64,000 nt of DNA from Saprospiraceae bacterium (GCA_965223405.1 CBDCWO010000006.1:2904364-2968363); one strand, 5' to 3'; numbered from the stretch's first letter, positions 4,194-56,678 are shown. Translations and numbers: made by a program. The notes: generated by a model from the sequence alone, not told the origin.

Positions 4194-4220
4194 TTGATGT
4201 TGATTTGGGGATATTCAAAT

Positions 4221-5564: not shown

Positions 5565-5876
5565 GATGACTTAGGTATAAGAGAGGTAAAAGGTAATTAA
5601 AATATTGTTTAAAAGGGAAATTGGAAGCGGTATCATCTGATGATGAAATGACAAAACCTCCGGTCGTCTGAAAAGAATGCAGGGAATAAGATGAGCCTTG
5701 AACGAGTAAACTACAACCACAAACCAAAAAATTACAAAACACAACCAACTTTTGACTATTTGTAGGTAGAAGTAATTGACCAAGTGTCGAATTCGGTATC
5801 GAATTTGCAACAGTAAACTCAACATCCGATGTGACCATCTGAAAACTCAACGTCTAATTATCAAAATTGTCTTGTT

Positions 5877-6488: not shown

Positions 6489-7044
6489 CTAGTAATAGTG
6501 AGTCTACTCTGAAAACTGTCATATAAAAAGAATACTTGAAATAATGCAAAATATTGTATACTCCCCCGCCACCCTAACCCTAAAGGGCCTCCGCCCACAA
6601 ATCCATTCTTTACCCTAGCCCAAAAGGGAATGCAGTCGCGCATTCATTTACAGCAAGTTATGCGGGAGGACTTTCCTTTAGGAGTCGGAGGCGAGCGTGG
6701 GCAAATTCTAAAACCAAATTATATTTACCGAAGGCTTTGATGTTGACTTTTCGGAGTGGACTCACTAGTACTAGTGAGTCTACTCTGAAAACTGTCATAT
6801 AAAAAGAATACTTGAAATAATGCAAAATATTGTATACTCCCCCACCACCCTAACCCTAAAGGGCCTCCGCCCACAAATCCATTCTTTACCCTAGCCCAAA
6901 AGGGAATGCAGTCGCGCATTCATTTACAGCAAGTTATGCGGGAGGACTCTCCTTTAGGAGTTGGAGGCGAGCGTGGGCAAATTCTAAAACCAAATTATAT
7001 TTACCGAAGGCTTTGATGTTGACTTTTCAGAGTAGACTCACTAG
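6489..7044. mobile_element. Two tandem 276-bp MITE-like units (family A), each bounded by about 21-bp TIRs
   Basis: Unit 1 is about 6497-6768 and unit 2 about 6773-7044. They differ by only a handful of substitutions. Each starts with agtgagtctactctgaaaa and ends with ttttc(g/a)gagt(g/a)gactcact. The units are joined head to tail through actagtactag. Confidence 0.65.
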
Positions 7045-7050
7045 TGGTTT

Positions 7051-28788: not shown

Positions 28789-28985
28789 ATGATAAGTCAC
28801 CAGTGCCTCAGCGTGCTTTCATACGATGTCGACTTTGCTCAAAAAATCGGTTCACTTTGCGAATTGTAGATCTTTATCATAAAGCGTAATTGTAAATATA
28901 AATGAGCGAATTACTGGCCACCAGGAATCCAGTGAGTTTATTATTCAGAAGAAATGTAATATTTTCTATCTTCGCAACTCAATAA

Positions 28986-29941
28986 TTAATTAACCCAAGT
29001 TGCGAACTATAGATTGATAGACCTAAAAAAGGTGTAAGCTAACACAAAAAGGAATATTTTGATCAAAAAGCCTTGGGGCGTGACTGCATGGATTTTAGCA
29101 GGCATCATTTGAGCTATTTCACTAAAAGTGGTTTCAATACGTTTTCTTTTATTTTCTATTAAATAATCTGTATAGGGTTTATGTTGTCTTTTGAGGTTGG
29201 ATTTTCTTTGTACCAGTAAATGAATTTGGTCGCATTCCATCAACAAATCTTCGTACTGATAATCGTTGTAAATAGCATCTGCATACAAGGTGCTATCAAC
29301 AGGTAAATCCAAATTCATAGATTTAAAAGCGGTTATGTCGGAGAAAGAACCAGCCGCAATATAATAGTCCACTGGTATTCCATTTGCATCCACTACCAAT
29401 TGGACTTTAAAACCATAAAAATACTCCCTTTTAGAAACACATTTGCCACGATAAGCTTTGTTTTTCAATAACTTACAGTTTGGGATTCGAATGTTGTGAC
29501 ACACTTTAACCGGAAATGAATCAATGATGTATTCACTACTTATATTTAGATTTTTGATCCTTTGTCCAAGACCTCGAAATAGACTCCATAATAAAAATTC
29601 TAATCCATGAAGTCTTCTATTAAATCCGCTTTTATCAATAAATACAACTCCATGATGTGACCTCATATAACCTCTGGCTTTGACCATGTTGCATCCAAAA
29701 TATCTGGATGCTATAATTGCGGTTGTTAAAATTTCAGCATCAGTAGTTTTTCTTAATGATTCATCTTTTTTTCTTGAAATCTTGACAAAATCATCAATAA
29801 AGCAATAAATTGTAATTACATAATTTTCCATAATGGGTGTAGATTTTGGTGGGATGAGACCTCCTTAATTTACACCATTATGGATTCTTTAGCAATATGT
29901 ATTATCATTTATTTTAATACGTCGCAACTTGGGTTAATTAA
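28986..29941 (-). mobile_element. IS982-family insertion sequence, copy A (956 bp)
   Basis: Perfect 20-bp TIRs ttaattaacccaagttgcga / tcgcaacttgggttaattaa, flanked by a 3-bp direct repeat TAA (28983-28985 and 29942-29944). By eye the sequence is identical to copy B at 55712-56667. Confidence 0.85.
29007..29831 (-). CDS. IS982-family DDE transposase
   Basis: 274 aa. The N-terminus YVITIYCFIDDFVKI has the IS982 pattern. The protein is identical to the product of 55733-56557. Confidence 0.85.
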   Translation of the reverse strand: MENYVITIYCFIDDFVKISRKKDESLRKTTDAEILTTAIIASRYFGCNMVKARGYMRSHHGVVFIDKSGFNRRLHGLEFLLWSLFRGLGQRIKNLNISSEYIIDSFPVKVCHNIRIPNCKLLKNKAYRGKCVSKREYFYGFKVQLVVDANGIPVDYYIAAGSFSDITAFKSMNLDLPVDSTLYADAIYNDYQYEDLLMECDQIHLLVQRKSNLKRQHKPYTDYLIENKRKRIETTFSEIAQMMPAKIHAVTPQGFLIKIFLFVLAYTFFRSINL

Positions 29942-30081
29942 TAATGTATTGCATTAACCGCAAATCGGCAAGATGAGTTATCTGGAAGCACATTTACAAT
30001 TTGATTTTATGACCAAGTTACTTTTTCAGGAAGCAGCAATAGATAAGGATTGATCTAATCTAAAAGAATATCATATTAAAC

Positions 30082-37719: not shown

Positions 37720-38421
37720 TCAAATGTATCTTTCCCGCTTTTGTAAATTTATCAGAGCACCTAGGATAAAAACTACCGTTCCCACGCTTAAGAAAATCCG
37801 GCTTTTCCAAACGATTTGCTTCCAGGCCAGCTGACTGAATCCCCTGCGTGGGTCATAGGGATTTAAAAATACGTTCCAAAAAGTATCTTCCAGGAACTCA
37901 CTGAATATGGTCAATCCAACTCCGAGTATTACCATAACAACCGCCGTTGCATTACCATTTTTTATCCAGGTGGAAATCAAAAAAGCCAAACTACCCAGGA
38001 AGCAGATGGGAAACAACAATTGGATCGCTACTGAAACTGGATTTATTGGATACAACAACCAGGAACCAAGAGCAGCGAAAAGTATGAGTAAAATAAATAT
38101 TTGAGTAAATATCAGTACTAATCGAACCAGCCAAACTTTATAACGATAATCCGGAATACCAAAGTGGATTTCCAACATACGCGCATCCTCATCCCGTTGA
38201 ATCCCAAATACCACGGGATAAAAAATCAATAGAATGGCTGGAAAAAAAGTTAAAGAATAGATTGACCCAATATTGATTTCATCGTTTTCAAAAACACTTA
38301 TCACCATAAAAAATAGATAAAAAGCCAATGCGGCTACCAAAAACCAAAGAAAGCGTCCGGCAAAGATGACTTTCAAGTTATACTTGATCAAACTGCGGAT
38401 ATTTGTAATTGTATTGCGCAT
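37720..38421 (-). CDS. ABC-2-type permease-like 6-TM membrane protein, translationally coupled to the RND-ABC fusion gene
   Basis: 233-aa polytopic ORF. Its ATG overlaps the TAA of the upstream gene (TAATG at 38419-38423). Confidence 0.7.
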   Translation of the reverse strand: MRNTITNIRSLIKYNLKVIFAGRFLWFLVAALAFYLFFMVISVFENDEINIGSIYSLTFFPAILLIFYPVVFGIQRDEDARMLEIHFGIPDYRYKVWLVRLVLIFTQIFILLILFAALGSWLLYPINPVSVAIQLLFPICFLGSLAFLISTWIKNGNATAVVMVILGVGLTIFSEFLEDTFWNVFLNPYDPRRGFSQLAWKQIVWKSRIFLSVGTVVFILGALINLQKRERYI

Positions 38422-41400
38422 TAGTTTTTAATATTCTTTAATAAACACAAATAGGCATCCTCCAAAACGGGATCAACGGAAATGGCCGATTCCTGGGGTT
38501 TATGTAGGGAAATACATCGGACCCGTATGTGATCACCTTCACGCAGGTGATTAACTACAACCTCTTCTGATTCAACCGTGGCAAAGTCCACTGCCGGGAT
38601 GATATATTCCCAAACCAGTCCTTGCGCCAGACCAAGCATATCCTGTGGTGAACCCTGGTATTTTACAGCACCATGATCCAACACGGCCAATTGATTGCAA
38701 GAACTGGCGATATCTTCGATGATATGAGTAGAAAACAGGACAATCCGATCACGGCTTAATTGTACCAGGAGGTTTCTGAAACGAATACGTTCGCGAGGAT
38801 CCAATCCGGCTGTCGGTTCATCGACGATTAATATTCGAGGCAAATGAAGTAATATTTGAGCGATACCAATACGTTGTTTCATTCCACCGGAAAAGGAACC
38901 GATTTTTTCATGTTTGCGATCCAACATATTTACAGAATCCAACACATAGAGTAATCGTTCCTCCCTTTTATTGCGGTCATGCAATCCTTTGAGGATGGCT
39001 TGATAATCAAGAAAAGCCCAGGCCGTCATATTGTCATAACTTCCAAATGCCTGAGGTAGATACCCAATTAATCCCTGAAGTTCTTCACGTTTCTCCTGCG
39101 TATCAATACCATTGATCCAGATCTTGCCATAACTTTGTTCGAAGATTCCAGAGATGATACGCATTAAAGTTGATTTCCCGGCTCCATTGGGTCCTAGCAG
39201 CCCATACATGCCGGTACCAATATTCAATGACACGGTATCAAGGGCCTTAAATGGGATTTTACGTCTACCAAGCAGTGGGATGCTGATAATCGAGCGATAA
39301 TAAAATCGTCTCAGCTTTCCCTTTATCCTTTCAACCTTTAGCTGTTTACGGTAGAAATATGCCGACGATTTATAAACAATCAATACCAAATACCAAACTA
39401 AACCCCAAAAAATGGTATATCCCCATTCCTCCCATTTCTGATTCATTTGAAAAAGTAATACCAGCGGACTGGCCCAAAATAGGAGTTCTCCCAAAATCAT
39501 TGGGATCCATTTCTTTTTATCAGAATAAACTAAATTAAAGGCTAACTTGAACGGTTGCCATATTCCCAATAATAGAAGATAAATGCCTATTCCAATCAGG
39601 AGTATCCAAAAGCCATCCTGCAAATAAGAAAATGCAAACCATCCTAAAAAGATTAGAAGAGGAATTTTCCAAATAAACTCACTTAACAATGCACCCCAGC
39701 GAATCTTACCTTCTTCGGATTGAAGAACAAAAGATGGTGTTTTGCTGTTTGACCACTCTCTTGAAAACCGACCGGGTCGATTGTAAATCTTTACCAGGTT
39801 TTGGACCTTAATGTATAATGCTTCATCGGTAGAGATCAGCCTGGTCTGAGCACGTTTTAGACTCGCTAAAATAAAATATGTAATAGCCGGAATCAGGAAG
39901 ACCAATAACAGGATATCCAGCAATTGCCATAGAAATGAAGTTACTCTGAAATAGATCAGTAACCCTCCACAGACGAAAAGGATGACATTCAATATTTTTA
40001 TCCATAGAGATAAACCTCTAAACCAATTAATGGTATTTTCTAACCCCAAATAGACTGTGGGGATCACGATTAAAGTAAGTACTGTTCCCAAAGCCAAACC
40101 TCCAATCACAGTTATTGCAAAAGGTGCTCCAATTACACTGACATATTCTGCTGTACCCAACGCCAAGGGAAACATAGCGGCAATAGTAGTAATAGCTGTA
40201 ATCAGGATTGGGCGTAACCTATGAAGTCCAGCAGTGATTAATGCCCGGATTTTACGATAGCCCTTTCTCCTCAAAGCATTGACATAATCAATCATGATGA
40301 TGCCATTGTTGACAATAACACCCAAAAGGATTAAAAATCCGGTGAGGGTATTGGCGTTGAATAATCCATTTCCGGTGATTGTTAAGGCTAATAGTGACCC
40401 TGTAGCGGCTAGTGGCACGGAAAACATCAATACAAAAGGTGCTGACAAAGATTCAAACACTGAAGCCAGGATAATGAAAATAAGGAGAATGGCTGCTCCT
40501 GCCAGTGCTTTAAAATCTTTGATCTGATCCTGGGCTGCTTCCATTTCGATAGCAATTCCCGGAGGGACCGGGTAGTTTGAGATTAGCAACTTTATGCTTT
40601 CCTGGTGCGCTTCCAGAAGTTCTTTTGACTGATTGGCTTCTTGAGAGCGAGTGTAAGAAATCTGTATTTGTTTCTGTTGGTTGATACGCCTGATATCATC
40701 ATAACTTTCACCTGTACGGATAGCAGATAAGGTGGACATTTCATGAGCTCCACCTTCTTGATCAATAACTTCCAACTTTTTGAGATCTGACATGGTTTTG
40801 GGTTGGAATCCTGATTGAAGGTCTTCATTATCGCGTATGATAATATTGTATTCATCGTCAACATATCTGAACTTGGTGTCCGCAGGTGCCTCTTGTTCGA
40901 AATTTCTTAATGCGATAGCAATATTTTCCGGAGTGACTTTATTTCTGGCCAGGGTTAAGGGGTCAAAGGCCAGCAATACTTCAGGTCGGTTGCCACGAGT
41001 GCTAAGATTAGCATTCCGGGTATCGTCCAGGTTTTGGATATAATATAGAAGATCCTGGGCAACTCTCTGCAACAATCCATAGTCCTCTCCTTTCACGACA
41101 ATTTTTTCCTGATTTTCACCAAAACCCATTAGTTGTCCCAGAGCATCCAATCCACCTAGGCCTTGAGAACCCTCACCGGAATTACTGGAAGCAAAACTAA
41201 TTCGAGCACCTCCGATGCGGCGGGTGAGATCTTCAATTTCCGATTTGATATCATTATAGGATCGATTATCTATTTTTTCAAAATCTTCTTTAAGCTTAAT
41301 ATTTACGACAGCATCTTCCTCCTGGATACGACTGCTGATATCTTGTTTCTCGGCGAGACCCTCTAGTTTAGATTCAATTTCGAGGACAATCTTATCTGTT

Positions 41401-43112
41401 TTCTCGATGGTACTGCCTTTGGCCATGGTTACAAAGACATCGATCTGATCCCTTTCTACTTCTTCAAGAGTATTAATACTGATAGCCAGAACGGCAAATG
41501 TAGTGATGAAAAACAAAACTAATCCACCAAGAATAGTTCTTGCCGGATATCGCAAACTGCTTTTTAGTAATACCAGATAGATGCGGGATGTTCGGTTCAT
41601 TTCATTCCGGCGACCAAATAGTCCTTTTTGTCGCTTACCATAAAATCCCAAACCAAGTAAAGCCAATACCGGAATCAACAACAAAGCGACTAATAAAGAA
41701 ACCATCAATGTAGATATAATCGATACGCCAATGTGTTTTCCGATCAGAGCGACCAGATAATTTCCAAAAAACAGAAAAGGGATAAATACTGTAGCCGTAG
41801 TCAAGGTTGCGGCAAAAATGGCCTTGGCTACTCCTGATACGCCCACAGAGACCGCTTTATCTGTCCGGATACCTGTAGATACTTTACGGTAAATATTCTC
41901 CAATACGACTATGCTGTTATCAAGTAACATTCCTATCGCCAGAGCCATACCTACGAGGGTTAAACTATTGATGGTTATTCCAGCTCCATAAAACAAATTG
42001 AAAGCGGCGAAAACAGAAACCGGAATCGATAAGGCTATTACAGAAACTAAACGAAGATCTTTAAGGAAAATCCATAATACGAAAACGGCCAGCAAACCCC
42101 CGATCAGGGCAAGATCTATTATCTGCTGGATATTTTCCTCCATGGTATCTGCAAGATTATTTTGAATTACAATTTGTACATCCTTGGCATGCAATTGATC
42201 ATTTAGTTGATTGATTAACTCTTTACAGCGATGTGAAAGCTCGATGATATTGGCTTGTGAGGCTTTGGTGGCAGTAAGAGAAATGGCGTCCTTTCCGTTA
42301 ACCCGGCTAATAGATGTCTCCTTGTCTACTCCAAAAGATATTTTGGCAACATCCCTTAATAGGATTGGTCCCGGGGCCATAACGGTGTTTTCAATATCTT
42401 TTACTTGGGTATATTCGGAGGCCGTGCGTACAAAAAGTCTGCGGTTTCCTTCGTACACGAATCCCGCCAGCGTTCTACTTCCTGAGTTCTGCATTAGCCG
42501 CGAACGCACTTGATCCGGAGTAATTTTATGGGGCTCGCAAGCTTGCTTATCCAATAGGATTTCAAGGGTTTTCTGTTGTCCTCCAAAAATATTAAGTGAA
42601 GCAATTCCGTCCAGGTTTTCAAAGGCTGGTCTGATTTCTTTTTCCGATATATTACGTAATCGATCGGTTCCTCCGCTACCACGAATCTGTAGTTCCAAGA
42701 ATTGATTGGTCAGCTGTTGCACATCTATTTTTGAAACTCGAACCAGGATATCTGATGGCAACTGACTCTTAACCGCATCAATCTTTTGCTGTAGTTTCAA
42801 AAAGACATATTTGAACTTAATTGATTGATCAAAACTGACTTGGATAAAAGCCCTATTACCATTAATTCGGGTATCGATCTTTTCTACTCCCTCCATGGTT
42901 CCGATTACTCCTTCCACTGGTATCACCCCCTGTTGTTCCAGGTATTGAGGGCTGATTTGTCTGGGCGATCCCACCTGTATAAAGAGCATAGGGAGCTCAG
43001 CATTTGGAAGTAACTCCACCGGTAAATATCGATAGGAAATATAACCCAATAGGCTCAAGCCTATGAATATCATACAGATGGTTACTTTCCTATGGATGAA
43101 TGCTAACTTCAT
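38421..43112 (-). CDS. Fusion protein: complete RND (AcrB-type) permease, 2 TM helices, split ABC nucleotide-binding domain carrying a 4-TM insert
   Basis: Uninterrupted 1563 codons. The RND part is aa 1 to about 1030 (nt 43112 to about 40025; TM4 GMLLDNSIVVLENI, TM10 LLGVIVNNGIIMIDYV). The NBD beta-1 strand LYIKVQNLVKIYNRPG starts at aa 1098. The hydrophobic insert is aa about 1140-1250. The NBD core is aa 1286-1563 (nt 39257-38424) with GPNGAGKST, LPQ, FSGGMKQR, ILIVDEPTAGLD and FSTH. Confidence 0.85.
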   Translation of the reverse strand: MKLAFIHRKVTICMIFIGLSLLGYISYRYLPVELLPNAELPMLFIQVGSPRQISPQYLEQQGVIPVEGVIGTMEGVEKIDTRINGNRAFIQVSFDQSIKFKYVFLKLQQKIDAVKSQLPSDILVRVSKIDVQQLTNQFLELQIRGSGGTDRLRNISEKEIRPAFENLDGIASLNIFGGQQKTLEILLDKQACEPHKITPDQVRSRLMQNSGSRTLAGFVYEGNRRLFVRTASEYTQVKDIENTVMAPGPILLRDVAKISFGVDKETSISRVNGKDAISLTATKASQANIIELSHRCKELINQLNDQLHAKDVQIVIQNNLADTMEENIQQIIDLALIGGLLAVFVLWIFLKDLRLVSVIALSIPVSVFAAFNLFYGAGITINSLTLVGMALAIGMLLDNSIVVLENIYRKVSTGIRTDKAVSVGVSGVAKAIFAATLTTATVFIPFLFFGNYLVALIGKHIGVSIISTLMVSLLVALLLIPVLALLGLGFYGKRQKGLFGRRNEMNRTSRIYLVLLKSSLRYPARTILGGLVLFFITTFAVLAISINTLEEVERDQIDVFVTMAKGSTIEKTDKIVLEIESKLEGLAEKQDISSRIQEEDAVVNIKLKEDFEKIDNRSYNDIKSEIEDLTRRIGGARISFASSNSGEGSQGLGGLDALGQLMGFGENQEKIVVKGEDYGLLQRVAQDLLYYIQNLDDTRNANLSTRGNRPEVLLAFDPLTLARNKVTPENIAIALRNFEQEAPADTKFRYVDDEYNIIIRDNEDLQSGFQPKTMSDLKKLEVIDQEGGAHEMSTLSAIRTGESYDDIRRINQQKQIQISYTRSQEANQSKELLEAHQESIKLLISNYPVPPGIAIEMEAAQDQIKDFKALAGAAILLIFIILASVFESLSAPFVLMFSVPLAATGSLLALTITGNGLFNANTLTGFLILLGVIVNNGIIMIDYVNALRRKGYRKIRALITAGLHRLRPILITAITTIAAMFPLALGTAEYVSVIGAPFAITVIGGLALGTVLTLIVIPTVYLGLENTINWFRGLSLWIKILNVILFVCGGLLIYFRVTSFLWQLLDILLLVFLIPAITYFILASLKRAQTRLISTDEALYIKVQNLVKIYNRPGRFSREWSNSKTPSFVLQSEEGKIRWGALLSEFIWKIPLLIFLGWFAFSYLQDGFWILLIGIGIYLLLLGIWQPFKLAFNLVYSDKKKWIPMILGELLFWASPLVLLFQMNQKWEEWGYTIFWGLVWYLVLIVYKSSAYFYRKQLKVERIKGKLRRFYYRSIISIPLLGRRKIPFKALDTVSLNIGTGMYGLLGPNGAGKSTLMRIISGIFEQSYGKIWINGIDTQEKREELQGLIGYLPQAFGSYDNMTAWAFLDYQAILKGLHDRNKREERLLYVLDSVNMLDRKHEKIGSFSGGMKQRIGIAQILLHLPRILIVDEPTAGLDPRERIRFRNLLVQLSRDRIVLFSTHIIEDIASSCNQLAVLDHGAVKYQGSPQDMLGLAQGLVWEYIIPAVDFATVESEEVVVNHLREGDHIRVRCISLHKPQESAISVDPVLEDAYLCLLKNIKN

Positions 43113-43431
43113 TTAGGTGTTTACTATTTCCATTGTCATTGTCATTGTCATTTGTCCATTTTCTATATGTACTTTCATTCAAAATTCCACCCCCTGCCCC
43201 CTCAAGGGTCCCTCAAGGGGGACAAAATTCTTCCATTACCATTGTGATTGCTATTGTCATTGCTATTGCCATTTGCTTATCCAATCTCCATTCATACTTT
43301 CATTCAAAATTCCACATCACATTTCCATTTGTCATCAACTTTTTCAGAAATACGGATACAATTACTATTGTCATTTATTTCAAGCAGATTTTCATTTTCA
43401 TTTCTTTATCTACTCAACATTGAATTCAATT
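43113..43431. repeat. Structured repeat spacer between the two RND genes
   Basis: Two degenerate 125-bp direct repeats each contain a hexamer tract ((cattgt)n-like at 43130-43160 and 43231-43276) and an identical 20-mer actttcattcaaaattccac (43171-43190 and 43296-43315). An imperfect 25-nt palindrome ccccctcaagggtccctcaaggggg lies at 43197-43221. Confidence 0.8.
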
Positions 43432-46400
43432 TCATTTGTCATTATTATTGTTGCCTCCAAAATCGATTGCCGAATAAACACAAGGAATCACGACAAGAGT
43501 CAGAAGCGTGGAGGTCACTAATCCTCCGATTACTGCCCAAGCCATGGGTGCTCTGAGGGCTGCACTTTCTCCAAATCCAAAGGTGAGCGGTAATAAAGCG
43601 AGTATGGTTGTAATACTGGTCATTAGAATAGGTCGTATTCGCTGCTGACCCGCAAGTACAATCGCATTGTTTCGACTTAATCCTCCACGCTTCAATTGGT
43701 TGATTCGATCCACAAGAATAATGGCATCGTTAACAGCTATGCCTACCAGCATGATGATACCTATAATGGCCATAATATTCAATGGAGTATTTAGCCAATA
43801 AAATGTAAAAATAGTGCCGACGACTGCAAGAGGAATCGTAAATAATATGATGAAAGGATGCAAAAGAGACTCAAATTGAGAGGCCATAACCATATAGACC
43901 AGGACTATGGATAAAATGAGAGAAAAAGTCAGACTTTGAAGTGATTGCTGTCGACGTGCTTCGTCTCCCACTACCGAAATACTGTAATTCGGTGGTAAAC
44001 TTATCGTGCTGGTTCGTTCTCGAATCTGGTTGGCCACGAATTCCAATGGTACTTGTTTGTCGGTTTGAGCGTAAACTTTTCCAATTCTGGCTTGATTACG
44101 TCGATGGATTTCCCGTGGTGCAATCGATGGGTTTAAAGTTGCGATTTCATGAAGACGATATTCTTTATCACCACCGTTGATGGTGATATTTTTAAAATCA
44201 TCCAGACCAATATCTGGCATCATCAGATCGATATCGATCATTTCCCCGGACTGTTCGATTTTTCCAGCAGTTTTGCCCTGCAATTGATCCTGGATTTGGG
44301 CAATCACATTACTCATATCCAAATTATACAAACCAAGTTTCAAGCGATCAAATAGAACTTCTATTTCCGGAGCTCCTTGTTCGATGGAAGTGCGCACATT
44401 TTGCAGCTCAGGCATATCCATTAAGCTATTCCGGACAGCTTGAGTAAGATCTTCTATGATATCCAAATTATCTCCTTTTATTTCCACTACCAATGGAGAT
44501 TCTTCCATGCTTAGGATGCTATTCAAAGAGGATACTTCAGGAGAGAATGAAAACTTAACACCAGATATTCCCGCAGTGATTTCATCGAGTGCCGAAATTA
44601 CATTTTGAGTTCCTAACCGGGTGCTATCAGTCAATGCTACTTCAATAATAGCGGTATGCTCACCTTGAAATAAAGAGGATCGATCTCCTCCTTCCAATTC
44701 GGTCTTCGGACCAATATGGCTATACACAAATTTAAGATCTTCATCCAATGCCTGCTGGATTATCCCTTCTACGTTGCTAATGGTAGCGGCTGTTCTGGCC
44801 AGGACAGTTCCCTCCGGCATTTGAACATTTACGCGAAATTTTTTGGTGGTGGATCTCGGCATGAATTCAGTACCAATCGAAGAATATAAATAAAGGGCTC
44901 CGGCCATAAGCAAAGCAGCGAGGAAAATAATCGCCCATTTTATTCTAAGCATGCCCTGTAGAAAGCCACCATATCTGCGGAGTTGAAATGATTTTGCCTT
45001 GGCAGGAGCATTCCTTTTTCGGTAAAAACGATGATATAACATCGGAATCACAAAAATAGCGACAAAAAGAGATGACAATAGTGAAAAGGCCACCGTCCAG
45101 GCTTGATCTTTAAACAGCTCGCCAGCTGCATCTTGTAAATAGACTACTGGCAGAAAAACAATAATCGTAGTCAATGTGGATGCAGTAATAGCCCCCCCAA
45201 CTTCAGCTGTACCAGTAATGACTGCGGATTTGGTGTCTGCGCCGGATTCGTGATTACGAAAAATATTTTCCAGGACTACAATGGCATTATCAACCAACAT
45301 TCCGGCACCCAAAGCAAGGCCGCCAAGTGTCATGATATTAATGGTCAGACCATTGAAATACATCAGTGTGAACGTCGCAATGATGGAAATAGGAATGGCT
45401 ATACCAATGATCAACGTCGTTCCAAAACGGTGCAAAAAGATAAAAAGAACGATAATTGCTAAGAGAATTCCAATTAACGCCGTTTCCTGAACTTCATCAA
45501 CAGCCGTTTTAATAAATGTGCCCTGATTCGAAATGATTTCAAAATGATATCCTGGAAGTGCAGACTCAATCACATCAAATGCCTCACTAATTTCTTCAAC
45601 GGCTTTGACCGTATTAAACCGGTTTTCCTTAAATATAGATAATCCGATGCAGCGATGGCCGTTGATCCGAACGATGTTTTTAGGTTCTTTATTAGTAAAC
45701 TTTGTTTCAGCAATGTCTTGCAAATAAATTGGAGTTCTATTGATATCGGCTTCATTTTCCGGTACGTTCAGATTTTCAGCTGTGGCTTGATCATGCTCTG
45801 AGCTTTCATTATAACCGATAATTAAATTATTGAAATCAGTCTCTGTCTCCAGCATACCTACTCCTTTTACTGTGTATCTTAGACCTAGGTCTTCTACAGT
45901 CCCTCCGGAAACATTTTGGTTGAAACTTTGAATTTTTTGGGTGATGTCATCAACGGTCAACTTGAAGGCTTTCAATTTATGCAGATCTGGTTTAATCACA
46001 ACTTCATGTTCTTCTTGTCCGGAAAGCGTAACCTGGGCAACTCCTTCAAGTCGCATTAATTCATTGCTGATGTAATTTTGGCTTATCTTCCTGAGTTCAT
46101 TTAAATCTGTAATTGAGGAATGAGAAATCCCTACTAGCATGATGGGTGCACTATTGGGATCAAACTGAGTTACATTGACGCGATCCAGTTCTCCACTTTG
46201 ATTAAAATCGTTTATGGCCTTCTGTAAATCCAGAAATGCTTCATCCATATCCTTGTTCCAATTGTATTCGATAGTCAGCTGGGCTGATCCGATACGGGTC
46301 ACTGAGGCAACCTGGGTGACACCTTGTTGTCTCATGGATAAAGCCTCGATTTGTTCTACATACTGCTTTTCAATTTCCTCCGGAGCCTTTTCACCGGCAT

Positions 46401-46551
46401 GAATTTCGATAAAAAGCCGGGGGGAGTTCAGATCCGGAAACAAGTCTACCCCTAATCGGGAGTATGATATGTACCCCAAAATGCATATTCCGAGTATTGC
46501 CATCAGAATGGTTACGGGAAAATTAACGGCAAATTGGATCAGTTTTTTCAT
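43432..46551 (-). CDS. RND (AcrB-type) efflux permease
   Basis: 1039 aa with 12-TM topology and two large periplasmic loops. TM4 is GAGMLVDNAIVVLENI and TM10 is MLVGIAVNDAIILVDRI. The start overlaps the adaptor gene stop (ATGA at 46548-46551). Confidence 0.9.
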   Translation of the reverse strand: MKKLIQFAVNFPVTILMAILGICILGYISYSRLGVDLFPDLNSPRLFIEIHAGEKAPEEIEKQYVEQIEALSMRQQGVTQVASVTRIGSAQLTIEYNWNKDMDEAFLDLQKAINDFNQSGELDRVNVTQFDPNSAPIMLVGISHSSITDLNELRKISQNYISNELMRLEGVAQVTLSGQEEHEVVIKPDLHKLKAFKLTVDDITQKIQSFNQNVSGGTVEDLGLRYTVKGVGMLETETDFNNLIIGYNESSEHDQATAENLNVPENEADINRTPIYLQDIAETKFTNKEPKNIVRINGHRCIGLSIFKENRFNTVKAVEEISEAFDVIESALPGYHFEIISNQGTFIKTAVDEVQETALIGILLAIIVLFIFLHRFGTTLIIGIAIPISIIATFTLMYFNGLTINIMTLGGLALGAGMLVDNAIVVLENIFRNHESGADTKSAVITGTAEVGGAITASTLTTIIVFLPVVYLQDAAGELFKDQAWTVAFSLLSSLFVAIFVIPMLYHRFYRKRNAPAKAKSFQLRRYGGFLQGMLRIKWAIIFLAALLMAGALYLYSSIGTEFMPRSTTKKFRVNVQMPEGTVLARTAATISNVEGIIQQALDEDLKFVYSHIGPKTELEGGDRSSLFQGEHTAIIEVALTDSTRLGTQNVISALDEITAGISGVKFSFSPEVSSLNSILSMEESPLVVEIKGDNLDIIEDLTQAVRNSLMDMPELQNVRTSIEQGAPEIEVLFDRLKLGLYNLDMSNVIAQIQDQLQGKTAGKIEQSGEMIDIDLMMPDIGLDDFKNITINGGDKEYRLHEIATLNPSIAPREIHRRNQARIGKVYAQTDKQVPLEFVANQIRERTSTISLPPNYSISVVGDEARRQQSLQSLTFSLILSIVLVYMVMASQFESLLHPFIILFTIPLAVVGTIFTFYWLNTPLNIMAIIGIIMLVGIAVNDAIILVDRINQLKRGGLSRNNAIVLAGQQRIRPILMTSITTILALLPLTFGFGESAALRAPMAWAVIGGLVTSTLLTLVVIPCVYSAIDFGGNNNNDK

Positions 46552-47603
46552 CTCAATATTTTCACTTTGGACTTATTGCGTAGTGTTTCAAATCCCTTAA
46601 CAACCAGACGTTCGTTTTCTTCTAAACCACTGATTACTTCGATCTGATCTTCATTTTCGAGTCCGGTTGTAATCATACGTTCGAAGGCGGTGTTTTCCTG
46701 AACTACAAATACCCTTTTACCTCTCTGATCAGAAATAATCACTTCCTTGGGGATGGTGATGATGTCCTCTTTTTGATCGACTTTGATAAGTATTTTGACA
46801 AACATCCCGGGACGTATCAACAGTTTTGGATTGCTGAAGCGGACTCTGCCTAAATAGGTACGGGTATTGACGTCGATGGCTGGTGAAAGTTCAGTAATAG
46901 TTCCCGGTATGGTATCATTTGGTAAGCTGTAATTGGTGATTTGCACTTTCTGTCCTGGTTTTACTTCCATCATGGTATTTTCCGGCAGACTTACATCCAC
47001 ATACATGCGAGAATAATTCATGACTGTGACCAATGGATTGCCTTGTTGAATTATACTATTTTGCGTGTAGTGTGGAAGCTTCACTATGACGCCAGAAACC
47101 GGTATTTCAACCCGCATCTTCTCCAATCGTATCTGGGCATTTTCAAGGTCTTTCTTGGCATTTGTCAGCTGCAATTCCGAATTTCGTAATTCTCGCAAAG
47201 TAACCCCACCTTTGTCGAAAACAGATTTTTGTTTTTCATATTCCTGTTGTGCCAATTCAAGATTCATTTTCACTGACTCCAATCCAATGTTGTTTACATA
47301 TTCTTTATCTTCAATTTCGACAAAAGCTTGTCCGGCTTTGACCCAATCGCCTAATTTATATGGACGTTTTCGCGTTGGATGATTTTTTAGCTTGTATTTG
47401 CCATTAATTTGGGCCGTCAGTTCAATCTCTTTATCAGCCAGCGCATTTCCAGTAGCAATGGTATGCCGGGTTAAAGAACCGCTTTTTATTTCTACAACAG
47501 ATACAGGAGCGGCAATATCTATATTGGGGCTTTCCTCTTCGGTCTGGTTACAGGCGAGAAGGATTAGCAAAGCATAAATGAGGATATAATATTGTTTTTT
47601 CAC
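46548..47603 (-). CDS. Efflux RND periplasmic adaptor (membrane fusion protein), lipoprotein
   Basis: 351 aa with lipobox LLLAC. It has lipoyl/hairpin/beta-barrel architecture (coiled-coil ELAQQEYEKQK...LENAQIRLEKM). Confidence 0.85.
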   Translation of the reverse strand: MKKQYYILIYALLILLACNQTEEESPNIDIAAPVSVVEIKSGSLTRHTIATGNALADKEIELTAQINGKYKLKNHPTRKRPYKLGDWVKAGQAFVEIEDKEYVNNIGLESVKMNLELAQQEYEKQKSVFDKGGVTLRELRNSELQLTNAKKDLENAQIRLEKMRVEIPVSGVIVKLPHYTQNSIIQQGNPLVTVMNYSRMYVDVSLPENTMMEVKPGQKVQITNYSLPNDTIPGTITELSPAIDVNTRTYLGRVRFSNPKLLIRPGMFVKILIKVDQKEDIITIPKEVIISDQRGKRVFVVQENTAFERMITTGLENEDQIEVISGLEENERLVVKGFETLRNKSKVKILR

Positions 47604-47637: not shown

Positions 47638-49149
47638 CTAGTTATCCGACGGAAGCGCTATTGACACGGGTTCATTTTTTTCCCAATCGAAGAGTGTGAG
47701 TATTTTTAAATCCAGTAATTGTGTTTTATAATTAATTAAGGCACGAGCGTAGTCAATTTTCTTGGTAGATAGCTGATTCTGAAATTGATTAAGATCAATT
47801 CCTGATAAATCACCATTGATATACCTTTCAAGATTGATTTCATACGTTCTTTGCGCATTTTCTACACTTTTTTTGGCAATTTCGATACGAGGCATTTGAG
47901 TTTGAATATTACGGTAGGAACGGCGGATATCCATTCGTATCTGTTTGCGATCTTCAGCCAGGTCCAACCGCTGTGATCGCATGGATACTTCCTGGGCTCG
48001 AATCCGGGCTTCTCGTTCACCCCAATCGAAAATTGGTATGTTAAATGAAATTCCGATACTGGGGTTATTGGTAGGCATATTATAAATCTTGCCAAACTGC
48101 TCATCGTCCCCAAATATCCCTAGGGTCAACTGAAGATCTGCTCTAAACTCATTTTGGGCTTTAGTTCTTTCCAGTTCGAAAAATGATTTTTCAATGTTAA
48201 TTTGTCTTTGTTGGAGTTCCATGCGGGATTTCAAAGCATATTCGATGGCTTTTTCCAAATCCACGACTACAGGTATTGCTTCTAAATCAGTAGATAGCTG
48301 AATCTGCTGATCAAGGTTCATTCCAATTTCTCTTTTGAATGATTCTTCGGCATTCGTCAAAGCCAGTTCGCTATCCTGAAGTGACAGCTGAGCATTGGCA
48401 AAATTGAGTTCGGCCTGGTACAACTCCTCCTGTGCCAGCAATCCTGCTTCAACTTTGTTTTTCACGATCTCAAAATTTTTAGAAGTATTCTCCAGTTCAT
48501 CTTTGGCAATATCCAGGTTCAATTGAGCAAGATAGACATCAAAAAACTGACTGGTAATCGTTTTCTCCAGTGTTAATCGCTGAATAGCGTATTCCAAGCT
48601 GGCATTCTGATAGTTTAATTCCAATTCCTCAAGTTGCATTTTTCTTCGATTGAAAGTAAAGATCGGTTGGTTAAAGGCCAGATATAAATTATTGTAAAAC
48701 GCTTTATTGGAATTCTCTCCGAAACCCACAATTTCAGATTTGTTATTGCGCCAGCTTAAATTGTTGATTAAAGCAATAGTGCCATCGGTTTTCAAGATGG
48801 GTTGTTCTACCCGGAAAGATCCGGAAGAAAATACTTCCTTATTAGTGAACCACTGAGAAAACTGATTATCAAAACTCCGGCGGTTACTGAAGTTGAATGG
48901 ATCCAGAGTTAGGGAAAACCGTGATTTCAAGGATGCCCTTTCAGCTTCCAAGCTGAATTGATATTGTTCGATATTAAAAAGAGAACGCTGAATTGAAGGA
49001 CTTCCTTGTTCCGCTATTTCCATGGCCGACTCCAGAGTCAGTAGAGTCTGGGTAGATCCCGGTTGTGCAAGCAAAAATACAAACAACAAGAATCCGTGGG
49101 ATACAACTGAAGGTGCAATTCTAAATATTTTTAAGTATTTCATAATCAT
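47638..49149 (-). CDS. TolC-like outer membrane efflux protein
   Basis: 503 aa with a signal peptide and two tandem repeats of the long helical OEP pattern. Its position in the efflux operon supports the call. Confidence 0.8.
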   Translation of the reverse strand: MIMKYLKIFRIAPSVVSHGFLLFVFLLAQPGSTQTLLTLESAMEIAEQGSPSIQRSLFNIEQYQFSLEAERASLKSRFSLTLDPFNFSNRRSFDNQFSQWFTNKEVFSSGSFRVEQPILKTDGTIALINNLSWRNNKSEIVGFGENSNKAFYNNLYLAFNQPIFTFNRRKMQLEELELNYQNASLEYAIQRLTLEKTITSQFFDVYLAQLNLDIAKDELENTSKNFEIVKNKVEAGLLAQEELYQAELNFANAQLSLQDSELALTNAEESFKREIGMNLDQQIQLSTDLEAIPVVVDLEKAIEYALKSRMELQQRQINIEKSFFELERTKAQNEFRADLQLTLGIFGDDEQFGKIYNMPTNNPSIGISFNIPIFDWGEREARIRAQEVSMRSQRLDLAEDRKQIRMDIRRSYRNIQTQMPRIEIAKKSVENAQRTYEINLERYINGDLSGIDLNQFQNQLSTKKIDYARALINYKTQLLDLKILTLFDWEKNEPVSIALPSDN

Positions 49150-49159
49150 AGATTTTGAT

Positions 49160-52100
49160 CTAATCCATTTTTACCAATTTAATTGCATCGGCAAAAATTG
49201 CTCTGAGTCTGGATTCATTACTTAATGTAATAGTAGCTGTATCTGCTGTAAAAACATAATCGCCAAGGGAGTTCCAACCACCCGGAGATTGGTGGGATAA
49301 TTCGATACTTGGACGGTCTATTCCATTCGCATGGGGTATCACAAATTGATAATTTCCTTTTTGACCGCGATTCCAATTGAATGAATCGTCTTTATACACA
49401 TGATAAAAGACATCATATCTTCCCGGTTCGGATATCGGAATATTCCATTTGGCTTCCTTGGAGCCATCCCCGGCTTTGATGTAGAAGGCGGATCTAATGA
49501 ATTCTCCAAAAAAGCGATCATTGGTCGTTGCCGTCCAATTGAGAGGTGCACGCCATACCATAGTACCCTGATACTTGAAATCATCGTCCACTTCCGCTTT
49601 CAACCATTTGCGAAGCCGGCTTACTTCTTCAAAATGGGTAAATTCGAAACTGGGATTTTCATTGTCAACAATGATCTCATTATCATTTACGATCACCAGG
49701 GGGTTAGCAACGATTTCCTGTTTTTCTACAGCATTGGTAACCTTAGTTTTGTTAATGACTTCAAAGGAATAGTCAATCTGGTTGGGTAGATTTCCCGAAG
49801 TAAGTGTATTAAAATGGATACCGGCCGGTTCAGTCAGTGATAAATAAAATGCTTCTTTAGTTTGCCCTGGCTCGAGATATATCAATTTTTCCTGGGTATC
49901 TCCTGGGCGAAGTTTGGATTTCACTACACCTCCCGTTGTCCCCAAGTTTGAAATCTTAAAGCGAACCCGGTTCATTTCTCGATTCCCCACCAACACCTTC
50001 TCGGCCACAGGAGTGCTAAATAGATATTGAGCCATATCGGTTTCGTTAAACCATTTGGTCATATGTTGGGATAAATCCACTCCAAATTCGGCGTAAATGT
50101 GTTTTTGGAACTCTGCAAATTTTAGATTTTTGAAACGATATTCTTGCAACAACTGGATTACATATTCTCGAAACCGGTCTGTTTTTGCAATGGCTTGAAT
50201 CATTGAAAAGAGCATCTCTCCCTTTAATTCTATAACATTGTCTATCAAAGATTGGTGTTCCGATAGATTTAGAATTTGGGCAAAGGATTTTTCCTGTAAA
50301 ACCATATTGGCCAATTCATTTTGGGTACTGCCGCTTGTCTGTCGCATCCAATCCCTGCCGCGATTGTTTTCGATTCGTAAATAAGACTCAAAGACACGAT
50401 TTAGAACTGGCCAATCTTTTGAATCCAGATTGTTACACATTTCATATAATTGACCAAATTGATAGTACGGATTTAAAGTTTCTTCTACCTGCGCCCTACC
50501 GGCATTAAAATTGGTGTTGATGTTTTTGAATCGGTAAAATTCTTCTAAGAATACATGGAGTACCTCGATTTGCAATTCCTCAGCAGTTTTATTTCGGCGG
50601 CGGTTCCACCTTTTGCGACGCTTGACGGATCCATTAAAATCCAAATTCCTGGTGTACAAGCCTTTTTCCGGTATCAATACTTGTCCGGGTTGGATTGTCT
50701 GATGAACTGAGGTCCAATTGCGATCATAGGTTTTGAATTGACCAGGAACCTCGATGATTGTAAATTTATCAAATGGGTATTTTAGCCCGGATTGCCGTTC
50801 AAAATCTCTTAACCTTTCTTCAATAATTGAAGGGAGGGTATCTCTTATATCCTGAAAGGCATTATTAAAATAGTCATGGCCATCGATGTAATAGAGTGAA
50901 AACTTCATGCTATCGGTATCCAAGGTGGTCCGTTTGTAATTTCCTATTGCTACTGACAGTTGAGGTAAACCATAGTCACGTTCAAAAAAATAAGTGTTTT
51001 CTTCCAGTTGTGTAGGATGACCTTGTGAAATCGGAATCAATCCGGGCAGAGTTTTTATGGTCAATTGGTAATTGACAAAATCCTTTCGATACCAGAATGG
51101 TGATGCATTACTATATCCGACTCCTGATTGGGGATACCATTGCGCTTCAGGTGTTAACAGTAGATATTGCGGATGGATAAATGCGTATCTACTCCCAATA
51201 TCAAATAAATAATTCTTCTTTTTTTCAGATTTAAGTTTTTCATCAATATCCAAATAGCAGGCATTTTCGTCAATTGTACCCTGATATTCTATGCGCAATT
51301 CGATTGAAGTTTCAATAGGCAAAATAGTATCAAATCGAACTATCAACAATTGTAATTTTCGCTCATATTCCAATTCCTTTGCTATTGATGAAACAGATAT
51401 GACTTTTAGTCCCGGATTTAAAGTAAAAACAAATTCGCTAGCCGCTGTCTCCGTATAACCTTTTATTCTTGAAACGGCCTTGTAATCGGACTCATTTTGT
51501 TCCAATCTAATTTCATGATCTTCAATATCAATTTGGGCATGCGAGATATAGCTATTATTCAGTGCAATCATTTCTGCCGATAAGACTTTGTGTTCCTGAT
51601 AATTCTTTAAATGCTGGTGGCCGAGGTAAAGAGCAGATCCAATTGCCAGGACACCCAACATAAAAGATGAGATATTTATTAATCTGGATTGGGGTAAACG
51701 ATTTGAAATGAGGATAGAAAAAAACATGAAACCTAAACCCAAACAAGTATACATTACCCGCAGACTCAATATCGTAGGCCAGTCTCCAAAACCGACTAAT
51801 TCCGAATGAAATAAAGGGAGATAAAAGGCCATATAATCAAAGAGGTAATTGTGGGATCCGCGTAAATAAATTAAGCTGGAAAGGATATAACCCAATAGCA
51901 GAACAAAAGTCAATGCCTGATTACGGATAACTCCCATTAAAAAGATAGACAATCCAACAATAAATGTTAACGTAGGAACAGAGATTAACAGTGGATAGTA
52001 CAAATAAGCCTGCCAATCGACGTAGGTATCCTTGGCTAGTAAATTAAAAACCAGCGCCATCAACAATGCCACCACGTTGATCAATAGAAATATGGACAAG

Positions 52101-52435
52101 ATGCTCCAAACTTTACCAAACAGATATGTGGCATTACTCATGGACCGAACATAAAAGACCTCGGTGGTGTCCTGTTTTCGGTCACGTTTTATAAATTCTG
52201 AAGACAAGAATACAGCAATAATTGCCTGTGCGACATTTAGGATAAATAGATTGGCATAAGGAAGATTTGCAGGGATTGCCCGATACACCCATTCCATATC
52301 ACCCACCTCAGAAATTTCACCCATATTGAATGCAAATAGTACAAATAGTGAGAGCACCGAGAAAATTCTAAAAAACCAACTCCGCATTAGAATTTTGCGC
52401 TCGTATTTTGCTATCGTTCTAAAAGTAAAGATCAT
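49160..52435 (-). CDS. ABC-2-type permease fused to a large M1-peptidase-like extracytoplasmic region and a C-terminal golvesin-like domain
   Basis: 1091 aa. About 280 N-terminal residues are polytopic. The central region resembles the permease/M1-aminopeptidase fusions of Bacteroidota, but there is no HExxH or GxMEN anywhere. The C-terminus GRYDVFYHVY...GGWNSLGDYVF...AIFADAIKLV fits the golvesin C-terminal pattern (tentative). Confidence 0.7.
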   Translation of the reverse strand: MIFTFRTIAKYERKILMRSWFFRIFSVLSLFVLFAFNMGEISEVGDMEWVYRAIPANLPYANLFILNVAQAIIAVFLSSEFIKRDRKQDTTEVFYVRSMSNATYLFGKVWSILSIFLLINVVALLMALVFNLLAKDTYVDWQAYLYYPLLISVPTLTFIVGLSIFLMGVIRNQALTFVLLLGYILSSLIYLRGSHNYLFDYMAFYLPLFHSELVGFGDWPTILSLRVMYTCLGLGFMFFSILISNRLPQSRLINISSFMLGVLAIGSALYLGHQHLKNYQEHKVLSAEMIALNNSYISHAQIDIEDHEIRLEQNESDYKAVSRIKGYTETAASEFVFTLNPGLKVISVSSIAKELEYERKLQLLIVRFDTILPIETSIELRIEYQGTIDENACYLDIDEKLKSEKKKNYLFDIGSRYAFIHPQYLLLTPEAQWYPQSGVGYSNASPFWYRKDFVNYQLTIKTLPGLIPISQGHPTQLEENTYFFERDYGLPQLSVAIGNYKRTTLDTDSMKFSLYYIDGHDYFNNAFQDIRDTLPSIIEERLRDFERQSGLKYPFDKFTIIEVPGQFKTYDRNWTSVHQTIQPGQVLIPEKGLYTRNLDFNGSVKRRKRWNRRRNKTAEELQIEVLHVFLEEFYRFKNINTNFNAGRAQVEETLNPYYQFGQLYEMCNNLDSKDWPVLNRVFESYLRIENNRGRDWMRQTSGSTQNELANMVLQEKSFAQILNLSEHQSLIDNVIELKGEMLFSMIQAIAKTDRFREYVIQLLQEYRFKNLKFAEFQKHIYAEFGVDLSQHMTKWFNETDMAQYLFSTPVAEKVLVGNREMNRVRFKISNLGTTGGVVKSKLRPGDTQEKLIYLEPGQTKEAFYLSLTEPAGIHFNTLTSGNLPNQIDYSFEVINKTKVTNAVEKQEIVANPLVIVNDNEIIVDNENPSFEFTHFEEVSRLRKWLKAEVDDDFKYQGTMVWRAPLNWTATTNDRFFGEFIRSAFYIKAGDGSKEAKWNIPISEPGRYDVFYHVYKDDSFNWNRGQKGNYQFVIPHANGIDRPSIELSHQSPGGWNSLGDYVFTADTATITLSNESRLRAIFADAIKLVKMD

Positions 52436-55502: not shown

Positions 55503-55711
55503 AGCCATTGGCTCTTGTTTTTTCTTTTACAGATGGAAGTTCAGATCTATCGATTCACTTTAATCTATTTGACAACAGAATAAGTGAGACAGTAAATTGG
55601 ATTTATTTCATTTTGCATACAGCAGTTTAAAATGTGAACCATTTCGCCAACTCCCTTGGAATATTTTTCGTCTTTTAATTAGATTAACAGATAATAATCG
55701 AACTCAGGTTA

Positions 55712-56667
55712 TTAATTAACCCAAGTTGCGAACTATAGATTGATAGACCTAAAAAAGGTGTAAGCTAACACAAAAAGGAATATTTTGATCAAAAAGCCTT
55801 GGGGCGTGACTGCATGGATTTTAGCAGGCATCATTTGAGCTATTTCACTAAAAGTGGTTTCAATACGTTTTCTTTTATTTTCTATTAAATAATCTGTATA
55901 GGGTTTATGTTGTCTTTTGAGGTTGGATTTTCTTTGTACCAGTAAATGAATTTGGTCGCATTCCATCAACAAATCTTCGTACTGATAATCGTTGTAAATA
56001 GCATCTGCATACAAGGTGCTATCAACAGGTAAATCCAAATTCATAGATTTAAAAGCGGTTATGTCGGAGAAAGAACCAGCCGCAATATAATAGTCCACTG
56101 GTATTCCATTTGCATCCACTACCAATTGGACTTTAAAACCATAAAAATACTCCCTTTTAGAAACACATTTGCCACGATAAGCTTTGTTTTTCAATAACTT
56201 ACAGTTTGGGATTCGAATGTTGTGACACACTTTAACCGGAAATGAATCAATGATGTATTCACTACTTATATTTAGATTTTTGATCCTTTGTCCAAGACCT
56301 CGAAATAGACTCCATAATAAAAATTCTAATCCATGAAGTCTTCTATTAAATCCGCTTTTATCAATAAATACAACTCCATGATGTGACCTCATATAACCTC
56401 TGGCTTTGACCATGTTGCATCCAAAATATCTGGATGCTATAATTGCGGTTGTTAAAATTTCAGCATCAGTAGTTTTTCTTAATGATTCATCTTTTTTTCT
56501 TGAAATCTTGACAAAATCATCAATAAAGCAATAAATTGTAATTACATAATTTTCCATAATGGGTGTAGATTTTGGTGGGATGAGACCTCCTTAATTTACA
56601 CCATTATGGATTCTTTAGCAATATGTATTATCATTTATTTTAATACGTCGCAACTTGGGTTAATTAA
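55712..56667 (-). mobile_element. IS982-family insertion sequence, copy B (956 bp)
   Basis: It has the same 20-bp TIRs as copy A and is flanked by a 3-bp direct repeat TTA (55709-55711 and 56668-56670). Confidence 0.85.
55733..56557 (-). CDS. IS982-family DDE transposase
   Basis: The 274-aa product is identical to that of 29007-29831. Confidence 0.85.
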   Translation of the reverse strand: MENYVITIYCFIDDFVKISRKKDESLRKTTDAEILTTAIIASRYFGCNMVKARGYMRSHHGVVFIDKSGFNRRLHGLEFLLWSLFRGLGQRIKNLNISSEYIIDSFPVKVCHNIRIPNCKLLKNKAYRGKCVSKREYFYGFKVQLVVDANGIPVDYYIAAGSFSDITAFKSMNLDLPVDSTLYADAIYNDYQYEDLLMECDQIHLLVQRKSNLKRQHKPYTDYLIENKRKRIETTFSEIAQMMPAKIHAVTPQGFLIKIFLFVLAYTFFRSINL

Positions 56668-56678
56668 TTATCGTGCAA

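Follow-up and report, generated by a model that had tools for sequence, protein, structure and literature searches.

Genomic context of the spacer

The window analysed herein, a 64 000 nt stretch of DNA from a Saprospiraceae bacterium, carries on its minus strand an operon in which two neighbouring RND genes, RND1 and RND2-ABC, are separated by an intercistronic spacer (Table 1). According to the ORF map, the RND1 stop codon (TGA) occupies 43434-43432 and RND2 begins with an ATG at 43112, leaving an interval of 319 bp. The remaining gaps of the operon range from -4 to 34 bp, and the initial annotation was thus correct in describing this as the only sizeable one.

The product of RND2-ABC combines a PF00873 domain (residues 4-1022) with a C-terminal ABC ATPase domain (PF00005, residues 1292-1435). 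The architecture, an RND-ABC fusion paired with a second RND gene, is widespread in Bacteroidota, and amongst the best 120 matches nearly all are 1550-1577 aa in length with both domains present; a literature search found no description of RND-ABC fusions. The closest relatives of the locus come from Saprospiraceae and other Bacteroidota. The RND2 protein itself is alone in its 90 % cluster, the next relative being 78 % identical, and the RND2 tree of the clade that includes the window is star-like. Unusually for an operon with an RND system, the first gene specifies a 1091-aa protein with weak ABC-2 membrane and M1-peptidase matches that fall below cut-offs and a Golvesin C-terminal domain that lies above. 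Elsewhere in the window there are two direct copies of a 972-bp insertion sequence (28972-29942 and 55698-56668), which are 99.6 % identical and encode a 274-aa DDE transposase (PF13612/PF01609).

Table 1. Positions of genes and sequence features in the window and at related loci (L###; coordinates are those of each locus). 4HB, four-helix bundle.
Locus	Feature	Position	Strand	Remarks
Window	1091-aa protein	49160-52435	minus	First operon gene; ABC-2-membrane and M1-peptidase-like matches
Window	Outer-membrane factor	47638-49149	minus	Operon gene
Window	Membrane-fusion protein	46548-47603	minus	Operon gene
Window	RND1	43432-46551	minus	AcrB-family permease, 1039 aa, upstream of spacer; Pfam PF00873, E 2.5e-207
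Window	Whole RND1-RND2 intercistronic spacer	43113-43431	minus	From ORF map, Pfam and comparison with relatives
Window	Fourth, array-like stretch	43425-43457	minus	Across RND1 stop codon; repeat families D1 and D2
Window	Third, decayed array unit	43357-43375	minus	Repeat family D2, 84 % to reference copy
Window	Distal 21-mer copy	43295-43315	minus	ATG AAA GTA, then TGA
Window	Distal array	43235-43275	minus	~7 NNCAAT hexamers on coding strand, left-arm type
Window	GC-rich hairpin	43192-43227	minus	Between the two clear units; core an 11-bp stem with 3-nt loop
Window	Proximal 21-mer copy	43170-43190	minus	Coding strand GTGGAATTTTGAATGAAAGTA; holds uORF ATG
Window	21-codon uORF	43113-43178	minus	ATG at 43178, TAA at 43115-43113; peptide MKVHIENGQMTMTMTMEIVNT
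Window	Proximal array	43126-43154	minus	Coding strand (GACAAT)3 and degenerate units; 12 nt upstream of RND2 ATG
Window	RND2-ABC	38421-43112	minus	1563 aa, downstream of spacer; PF00873 and PF00005 (Pfam)
Window	233-aa protein	37720-38421	minus	Operon gene; without Pfam match
L004	Intact cassette, RND1-RND2 junction	Left arm 5435-5458; 4HB ORF 5551-5898; right arm 5960-5989		RND2 ATG at 5992
L022	Intact cassette, RND1-RND2 junction	Left arm 1-65; 4HB 102-455; right arm 526-765		Right arm of about 45 units
L103	Intact cassette, RND1-RND2 junction	Left arm 2387-2416; 4HB 2501-2851; right arm 2888-2917		Flavilitoribacter nigricans; left arm in RND1 tail
L102	Broken 4HB gene and right arm, RND1-RND2 junction			
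L001	Arms only, RND1-RND2 junction			Hairpin-forming, z -2.5
L101	Right-arm remnant, RND1-RND2 junction	263-aa gene 4121-4912		Behind unrelated 263-aa gene, no Pfam match
L117	Right-arm remnant only, RND1-RND2 junction			Upstream region rearranged
L003	Unrelated double hairpin, RND1-RND2 junction			
L005, L021, L023-L025, L046, L060	Unrelated spacer, RND1-RND2 junction			Without arrays
L119	97-aa ORF and PIN-domain (VapC-like) gene, RND1-RND2 junction	684-1496		PIN toxin-antitoxin pair
L105	4HB and arms			Adjoining DUF1501 gene
L106-L111	4HB and arms			Flavobacterium; between YggS and RNase_T/GIY-YIG gene
L112	4HB and arms			Between TctC and TctA
L113-L116	4HB and arms			Between aldehyde dehydrogenase and glyoxalase genes

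Repeats and arrays of the spacer

The spacer contains two clear array-bearing units, which had been annotated as direct repeats of 125 bp. Two such units do exist, but their homology covers only ~70 nt at ~77 % identity with one 4-nt gap. The identical word that they share is real as well, although it measures 21 rather than 20 nt, and an exact 21-mer pair had 0 matches in shuffles of the window. The hexamer tract attributed to each unit is likewise present: (CATTGT)3.7 is located at 43131-43152, and a 12-nt-period array, containing 2.8 copies of a 12-mer at 90 %, at 43241-43273. Both arrays have the same orientation, reading NNCAAT on the coding strand, where the distal example runs AATGGC AATAGC AATGAC AATAGC AATCAC AATGGT AATGGA. 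Within the 64-kb window, runs of at least three perfect ATTGNN/NNCAAT units occur in the spacer only. A further word, ATGACAAATG(A/G), recurs as the initial annotation proposed, but is found exactly only twice (43325-43335 and 43432-43442) and not three times. The array-like stretch at the far end of the spacer encodes the RND1 tail, GGNNNNDK, which is non-conserved.

Short repeats are frequent in AT-rich intergenic DNA, and the spacer could on this account be a chance low-complexity sequence that has no history in common with the arrays of its relatives. Such an origin is extremely improbable. The word ATTGNNATTGNNATTG, with at most one mismatch, has 9 matches in 64 kb versus 1.7 expected; 8 of the 9 lie within the spacer, concentrated in 150 bp. 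The exact 21-mer pair is equally at odds with chance, and several relatives carry arrays of this rare family at the corresponding junction, as described below.

All three plus-strand frames are stop-free across the spacer in the ORF map, as had been remarked previously. The three open ORFs (102-134 aa) have no Pfam match and the open frames follow from repeat composition; protein coding on this strand was therefore rejected.

The 21-mer is identical at 21 of 21 positions between units whose flanks are only ~77 % alike, and this could reflect constraint, for example as a promoter or binding site. It has accordingly to be considered whether the spacer houses an internal promoter or operator, with the 21-mer, and possibly the arrays, acting as binding sites by which RND2-ABC and the gene after it would be separately transcribed or regulated. 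The -7 box of Bacteroidetes promoters is TAnnTTTG, and the 21-mer contains GAATTTTG, which is one mismatch away; in addition, a scan that does not cover Bacteroidetes promoters returned one weak sigma-70-like match (43151-43123). Against this, the 21-mer is found in none of the 119 related loci, and the spacing to possible -33 TTG words, as read from the sequence, is inconsistent between its two copies. A promoter or operator is considered unlikely.

The GC-rich hairpin and RNA structure

The GC-rich palindrome described at 43197-43221 is present, and forms the centre of a hairpin with predicted folding energies of -21.0 (coding strand) and -15.7 kcal/mol (other strand), although z is only -1.1 versus composition-matched shuffles. 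CAAAATTC flanks it on both sides, at 43180-43187 and 43223-43230, and this pair could represent a target-site duplication, or simply a tandem-duplication junction. The hairpin may serve as a local mRNA stability element. No copies of the GC element or of the 21-mer are present in the 64-kb window beyond the spacer; a 276-bp unit at 6489-7045, present as two tandem copies of 97 % identity, carries a GC-rich word, CCCTAACCCTAAAGGGCC, that is loosely similar to the former.

Beyond the hairpin, the fold of the whole spacer RNA displays no significant structure relative to shuffles (z +0.63), and its two halves show no predicted pairing (z +2.1). No intrinsic terminator was found in 42800-43800. 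An Rfam search of the same interval gave no rRNA or other match, with noise only in the spacer (E above 4), and a known RNA family was ruled out as its identity. A cyanobacterial STRR/SDR-type repeat, suggested by low GC content and short repeats, was also dropped, the relatives of the locus being Saprospiraceae and other Bacteroidota.

The 21-codon uORF

The uORF ends in a TAA that directly abuts the RND2 ATG and is in frame with it, exactly as initially annotated, and the distal repeat indeed holds a decayed version (MKV-stop). The further suggestion, that this constitutes a termination-reinitiation leader, is not supported by comparison with relatives. As a functional leader peptide, the uORF would be translated to its TAA, with reinitiation on the adjacent ATG restoring the translational coupling of RND2 lost through the long spacer. 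The direct, in-frame adjacency of stop and start is compatible with this, as are the RND1-RND2 overlaps or few-base gaps of distant relatives, by which coupling may matter. Amongst orthologues whose spacers reach at least 40 bp, from lineages that are non-independent, uORFs of 20 codons or more that end at the start are also slightly more frequent than expected (7 vs 3.2).

Set against these points, neither the uORF nor its peptide is present in any relative compared. The array adjoining the RND2 start has the opposite orientation in most of them, and the peptide is for that reason not conservable. Of 55 orthologues whose spacer is ≥40 bp long or unknown in length, only 4 have a TAA triplet at -3 to -1 of the RND2 ATG. 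When the spacer of the window is shuffled, 30 % of the resulting sequences contain a uORF of ≥10 codons that ends between -6 and +25 of the start, and 10 % contain one of ≥20 codons. Moreover, the distal copy of the repeat unit is already broken, as expected for non-coding sequence, and the uORF peptide has no Pfam match. The leader reading is hence given a low probability. The uORF is instead judged to be a by-product of stop-free repeats, existing because (ATGACA)n lacks stops in the relevant frame and an ATG is provided by the duplicated 21-mer, and the TAA-ATG junction is judged to be fortuitous. A conserved hydrophobic micropeptide was also contemplated, given the resemblance between MAIAM... 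of the window and MLMAIAMAMAILMGMEN of L004; however, a coding role was rejected because the arrays occur in both orientations and with variable length and frame.

The RND1-RND2 junction amongst relatives

For comparison, 119 related loci were assembled, 100 of which (904 kb) were scanned for arrays. RND1 and RND2 are widely conserved as neighbours, and the gap between them ranges from -4 bp (an ATGA overlap in distant relatives) to about 900 bp. Across the 100 loci, runs of at least three perfect ATTGNN/NNCAAT units were found only at the RND1-RND2 junction of three relatives (L001, L004 and L022), apart from two 3-unit chance matches. Junction arrays of relatives comprise between 3 and about 45 units, with higher-order periods of 12, 18 and 51 nt, and they flank, in inverted arrangement, a 115-117-aa ORF for a four-helix-bundle (4HB) protein. 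The 4HB ORFs of L004, L022 and the distant L045 score above the curated cut-offs of PF05635 (named '23S rRNA-intervening sequence protein' in Pfam) and TIGR02436 ('four helix bundle protein' in NCBIfam), whilst for L103, L105, L106, L112 and L113 the PF05635 assignment comes from precomputed matches. The intact cassette of Flavilitoribacter nigricans is represented by two loci, L103 and L104.

Other relatives display all stages of cassette decay, or entirely different arrangements, at the same position (Table 1). In L003, the unrelated double hairpin (5936-5990) is a near-identical stem-loop pair, CTCGGATT(n3)AATCCGAG, with a predicted RNA fold at z -9.5. With 4HB cassettes, a PIN pair, a 263-aa gene and hairpins all represented, the junction looks like a hot spot for insertions. 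These insertions vary by lineage, and therefore the coupling of RND1 to RND2 differs widely between lineages. Variation extends into RND1 itself, in that the C-terminal tails beyond ...VIPCVYAVIDF vary and are array-encoded in L103 (2387-2440) and L001 (5890-5929). The L103 tail, ...NFNSNSNFND..., is N-rich, and that of the window (43432-43457) is likewise partly array-encoded. It would seem, from these sequences, that arrays have been absorbed into the upstream RND1 ORF.

The range in array length also bears on the earlier description of the spacer as a slippage-prone tract, which holds in the broad sense that the unit numbers of junction arrays vary between relatives (3 to ~45). In the window, the arrays are short and degenerate, and therefore poor substrates for slippage. 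A related reading is that of a simple-sequence contingency tract, in which slippage alters the length or structure of the leader and so tunes RND2 expression or the RND1:RND2 ratio. Alongside the range amongst relatives and its higher-order periods, there are precedents in the variable heptamers of the Coxiella intervening sequence (PMC4990558) and the heptamer array of Haemophilus influenzae hmw (PMC12721329). Yet the window holds at most 3.7 perfect units, with no inverted partner for hairpin formation, and for this spacer a contingency tract is improbable. Of the regulatory readings, array instability is thus supported and the uORF leader is not, which amounts to partial support at best.

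A hexamer-armed 4HB cassette family

In its intact layout, the cassette follows an upstream stop codon with (NNCAAT)n, a 4HB gene (PF05635/TIGR02436) of 115-130 aa, (ATTGNN)n and a downstream start codon. Every part runs in the direction of the host operon, and the two arrays form inverted repeats. Members of the same 4HB subfamily, 65-88 % identical between Saprospiraceae and Flavobacterium, are accompanied by the same arms at four unrelated co-directional junctions in Bacteroidota (Table 1), and from this distribution the arrays are taken to belong to the 4HB gene, not to the RND locus. A more distant 4HB gene (37 % identity) in L045 has inverted arms that are heptamers instead of hexamers, (GATTAAC)4 and (GTTAATC)4, and the repeat unit may therefore differ with 4HB subfamily. 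This gene (6981-7440) sits after the RND2-ABC gene, not before it.

As the arrays are inverted, a long stem is predicted around the small gene on the operon transcript. The predicted arm duplexes have z values versus shuffles of -10.9 (L022), -10.2 (L045), -6.0 (L112), -5.0 (L004) and -2.3 (L113). In the full fold of L004 the arms pair across the ORF, bringing the region of the RND1 stop together with that of the RND2 start. Nothing reached the gathering threshold when Rfam was applied to cassette loci L004, L106 and L112.

The most extensive arrays surround the 4HB gene of L105 (2250-3860), where ~1.5 kb of CAAT hexamers show a 51-nt higher-order period, and five called 'genes' of 56-78 aa in or beside them are probably spurious. 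Assemblies frequently end beside these genes, many 4HB contigs being <2 kb in length. Arrays beside 4HB genes explain both these frequent assembly breaks and the spurious ORF calls.

A literature search for hexamer or heptamer repeats with 4HB or S23p genes in Bacteroidetes gave only the Coxiella paper discussed below; its coverage was incomplete, and the missing descriptions of the cassette are therefore absence of evidence only. A 4HB subfamily that travels with inverted CAAT-hexamer arrays is, apparently, an undescribed association.

Origin of the spacer

Taken together, the spacer is probably, with a likelihood of roughly two in three, a decayed and gene-less relic of a hexamer-armed 4HB cassette, which is itself intervening-sequence-like. 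As in the relatives, NNCAAT arrays are located at the junction of a co-directional operon. The distal array is 96 % identical to the left arm of L022 over 26 nt and 93 % identical to that of L004 over 27 nt; by virtue of the motif alone, any two NNCAAT arrays are at least 67 % alike, and these values therefore indicate the same array family and not strict orthology. A tblastn search with the 4HB protein found no 4HB gene in the 64-kb window, and the coding strand of the spacer has no ATTGNN partner that could act as right arm. With only one arm orientation and no gene, the window is classed as a relic, not as an intact member of the family, and with both arrays running in the same direction no stem is possible. 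The proximal array was entertained as an inverted right arm, but this was rejected: both arrays have the 21-mer on their upstream side, an order that indicates tandem duplication.

Under this interpretation, the 4HB gene and right arm would have been lost from a cassette, whilst left-arm-type arrays would persist in four tandem higher-order units, two of them clear and two decayed, with the GC-rich hairpin standing between the clear ones. The first array-like unit would have been absorbed into the C-terminal tail of RND1. RND2 would be left behind a 319-nt AU-rich untranslated leader, and would therefore be translated independently of RND1; in distant relatives, the two genes have an ATGA overlap. 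With the next relative only 78 % identical, direct descent of these arrays from an intact cassette is inferred and not traced. In addition, the window retains the left-arm type, as opposed to mostly the right arm in gene-less relatives, and a separate history of loss and duplication is needed to accommodate it. The 21-mer, the GC hairpin and the ~160 bp following RND1 have no counterpart in any of the 119 related loci. The arms of intact cassettes would presumably be transcribed and processed by RNase III, and the relic would presumably be without function.

Comparison with known systems

Intercistronic REP/BIME-type hairpins and uORF-based translational coupling are known arrangements to which the spacer bears some likeness, in that two cistrons are separated by a stable GC hairpin and the stop of a uORF directly precedes the following start. 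Its hairpin is, however, single-copy and not significant versus composition-matched shuffles, and its uORF is not conserved.

The closest known analogue of the cassettes is the S23p-encoding intervening sequence (IVS) of 23S rRNA, which is found in Coxiella burnetii, Leptospira, Xanthomonas and Brucella (PMC4990558). In C. burnetii, 28-bp terminal inverted repeats pair into a stem that RNase III cuts, and the loop of this stem contains an ORF of the PF05635 family (S23p) (PMC4990558). Upstream of this decaying ORF are GACAGAT heptamers, the number of which varies by strain (PMC4990558). The cassettes of the relatives similarly have a PF05635 4HB ORF inside terminal inverted repeats, with a long stem predicted on the host transcript in L004, L022, L112 and L045 (z -5 to -11). 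They also share short tandem repeats of variable number beside an ORF that is dispensable and decaying, and a dependence on host read-through transcription. In contrast to the IVS, the cassettes lie between protein-coding genes of operons and not in helix 25 or 45 of 23S rRNA, and their arms are CAAT-hexamer arrays, or heptamers in L045. The window differs further, having one arm type only and neither a 23S location, stem-forming inverted repeats nor a PF05635/TIGR02436 ORF.

A second parallel is the hmw 5′-UTR of H. influenzae, where a heptamer simple-sequence array of varying repeat number is one arm of a hairpin processed by RNase III (PMC12721329). Here too, a tandem-repeat array in a gene leader acts as the arm of a long hairpin; however, hmw has no enclosed gene, its partner arm is G-rich and its phase variation is demonstrated (PMC12721329), whereas in the window no hairpin is possible and no variation is documented. 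Finally, the diversity-generating retroelement (DGR) accessory protein Avd is a PF05635 homologue (PMC10053308), and so shares its four-helix-bundle fold family with the gene carried by the relatives' cassettes. Unlike DGRs, the gene tables of the cassette loci contain no reverse transcriptase, template repeat or variable repeat, and the window has no 4HB gene.

Wider implications

With regard to the family as a whole, it is possible, although doubtful, that armed 4HB cassettes are an undescribed IVS-like class at co-transcribed junctions of Bacteroidota. The 4HB protein would recognise its own arms, these being RNase III substrates that split or re-balance the operon transcript, and the window would be a domesticated, gene-less derivative that sets the RND1:RND2-ABC ratio via arrays, hairpin and uORF. 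The repeat unit differs by 4HB protein subfamily, with CAAT hexamers here, GATTAAC in L045 and GACAGAT in Coxiella, and this apparent co-variation would suggest recognition of the arms by their own protein. If true, the cassettes would be a messenger-RNA counterpart of the S23p-encoding IVS of 23S rRNA.

For the window, a seemingly designed uORF leader becomes, on the preferred reading, the probable scar of an inserted element, which urges caution when stop-free repeat tracts are read as functional. The spacer is in itself of modest interest, and the cassette family is the more interesting result. It raises the questions of whether the 4HB protein binds the arms and whether the arms are RNase III sites. 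The presence of this 4HB subfamily and its arms in at least five operon contexts, across Saprospiraceae and Flavobacterium, may thus offer a handle on the function of the enigmatic S23p/Avd-like family.
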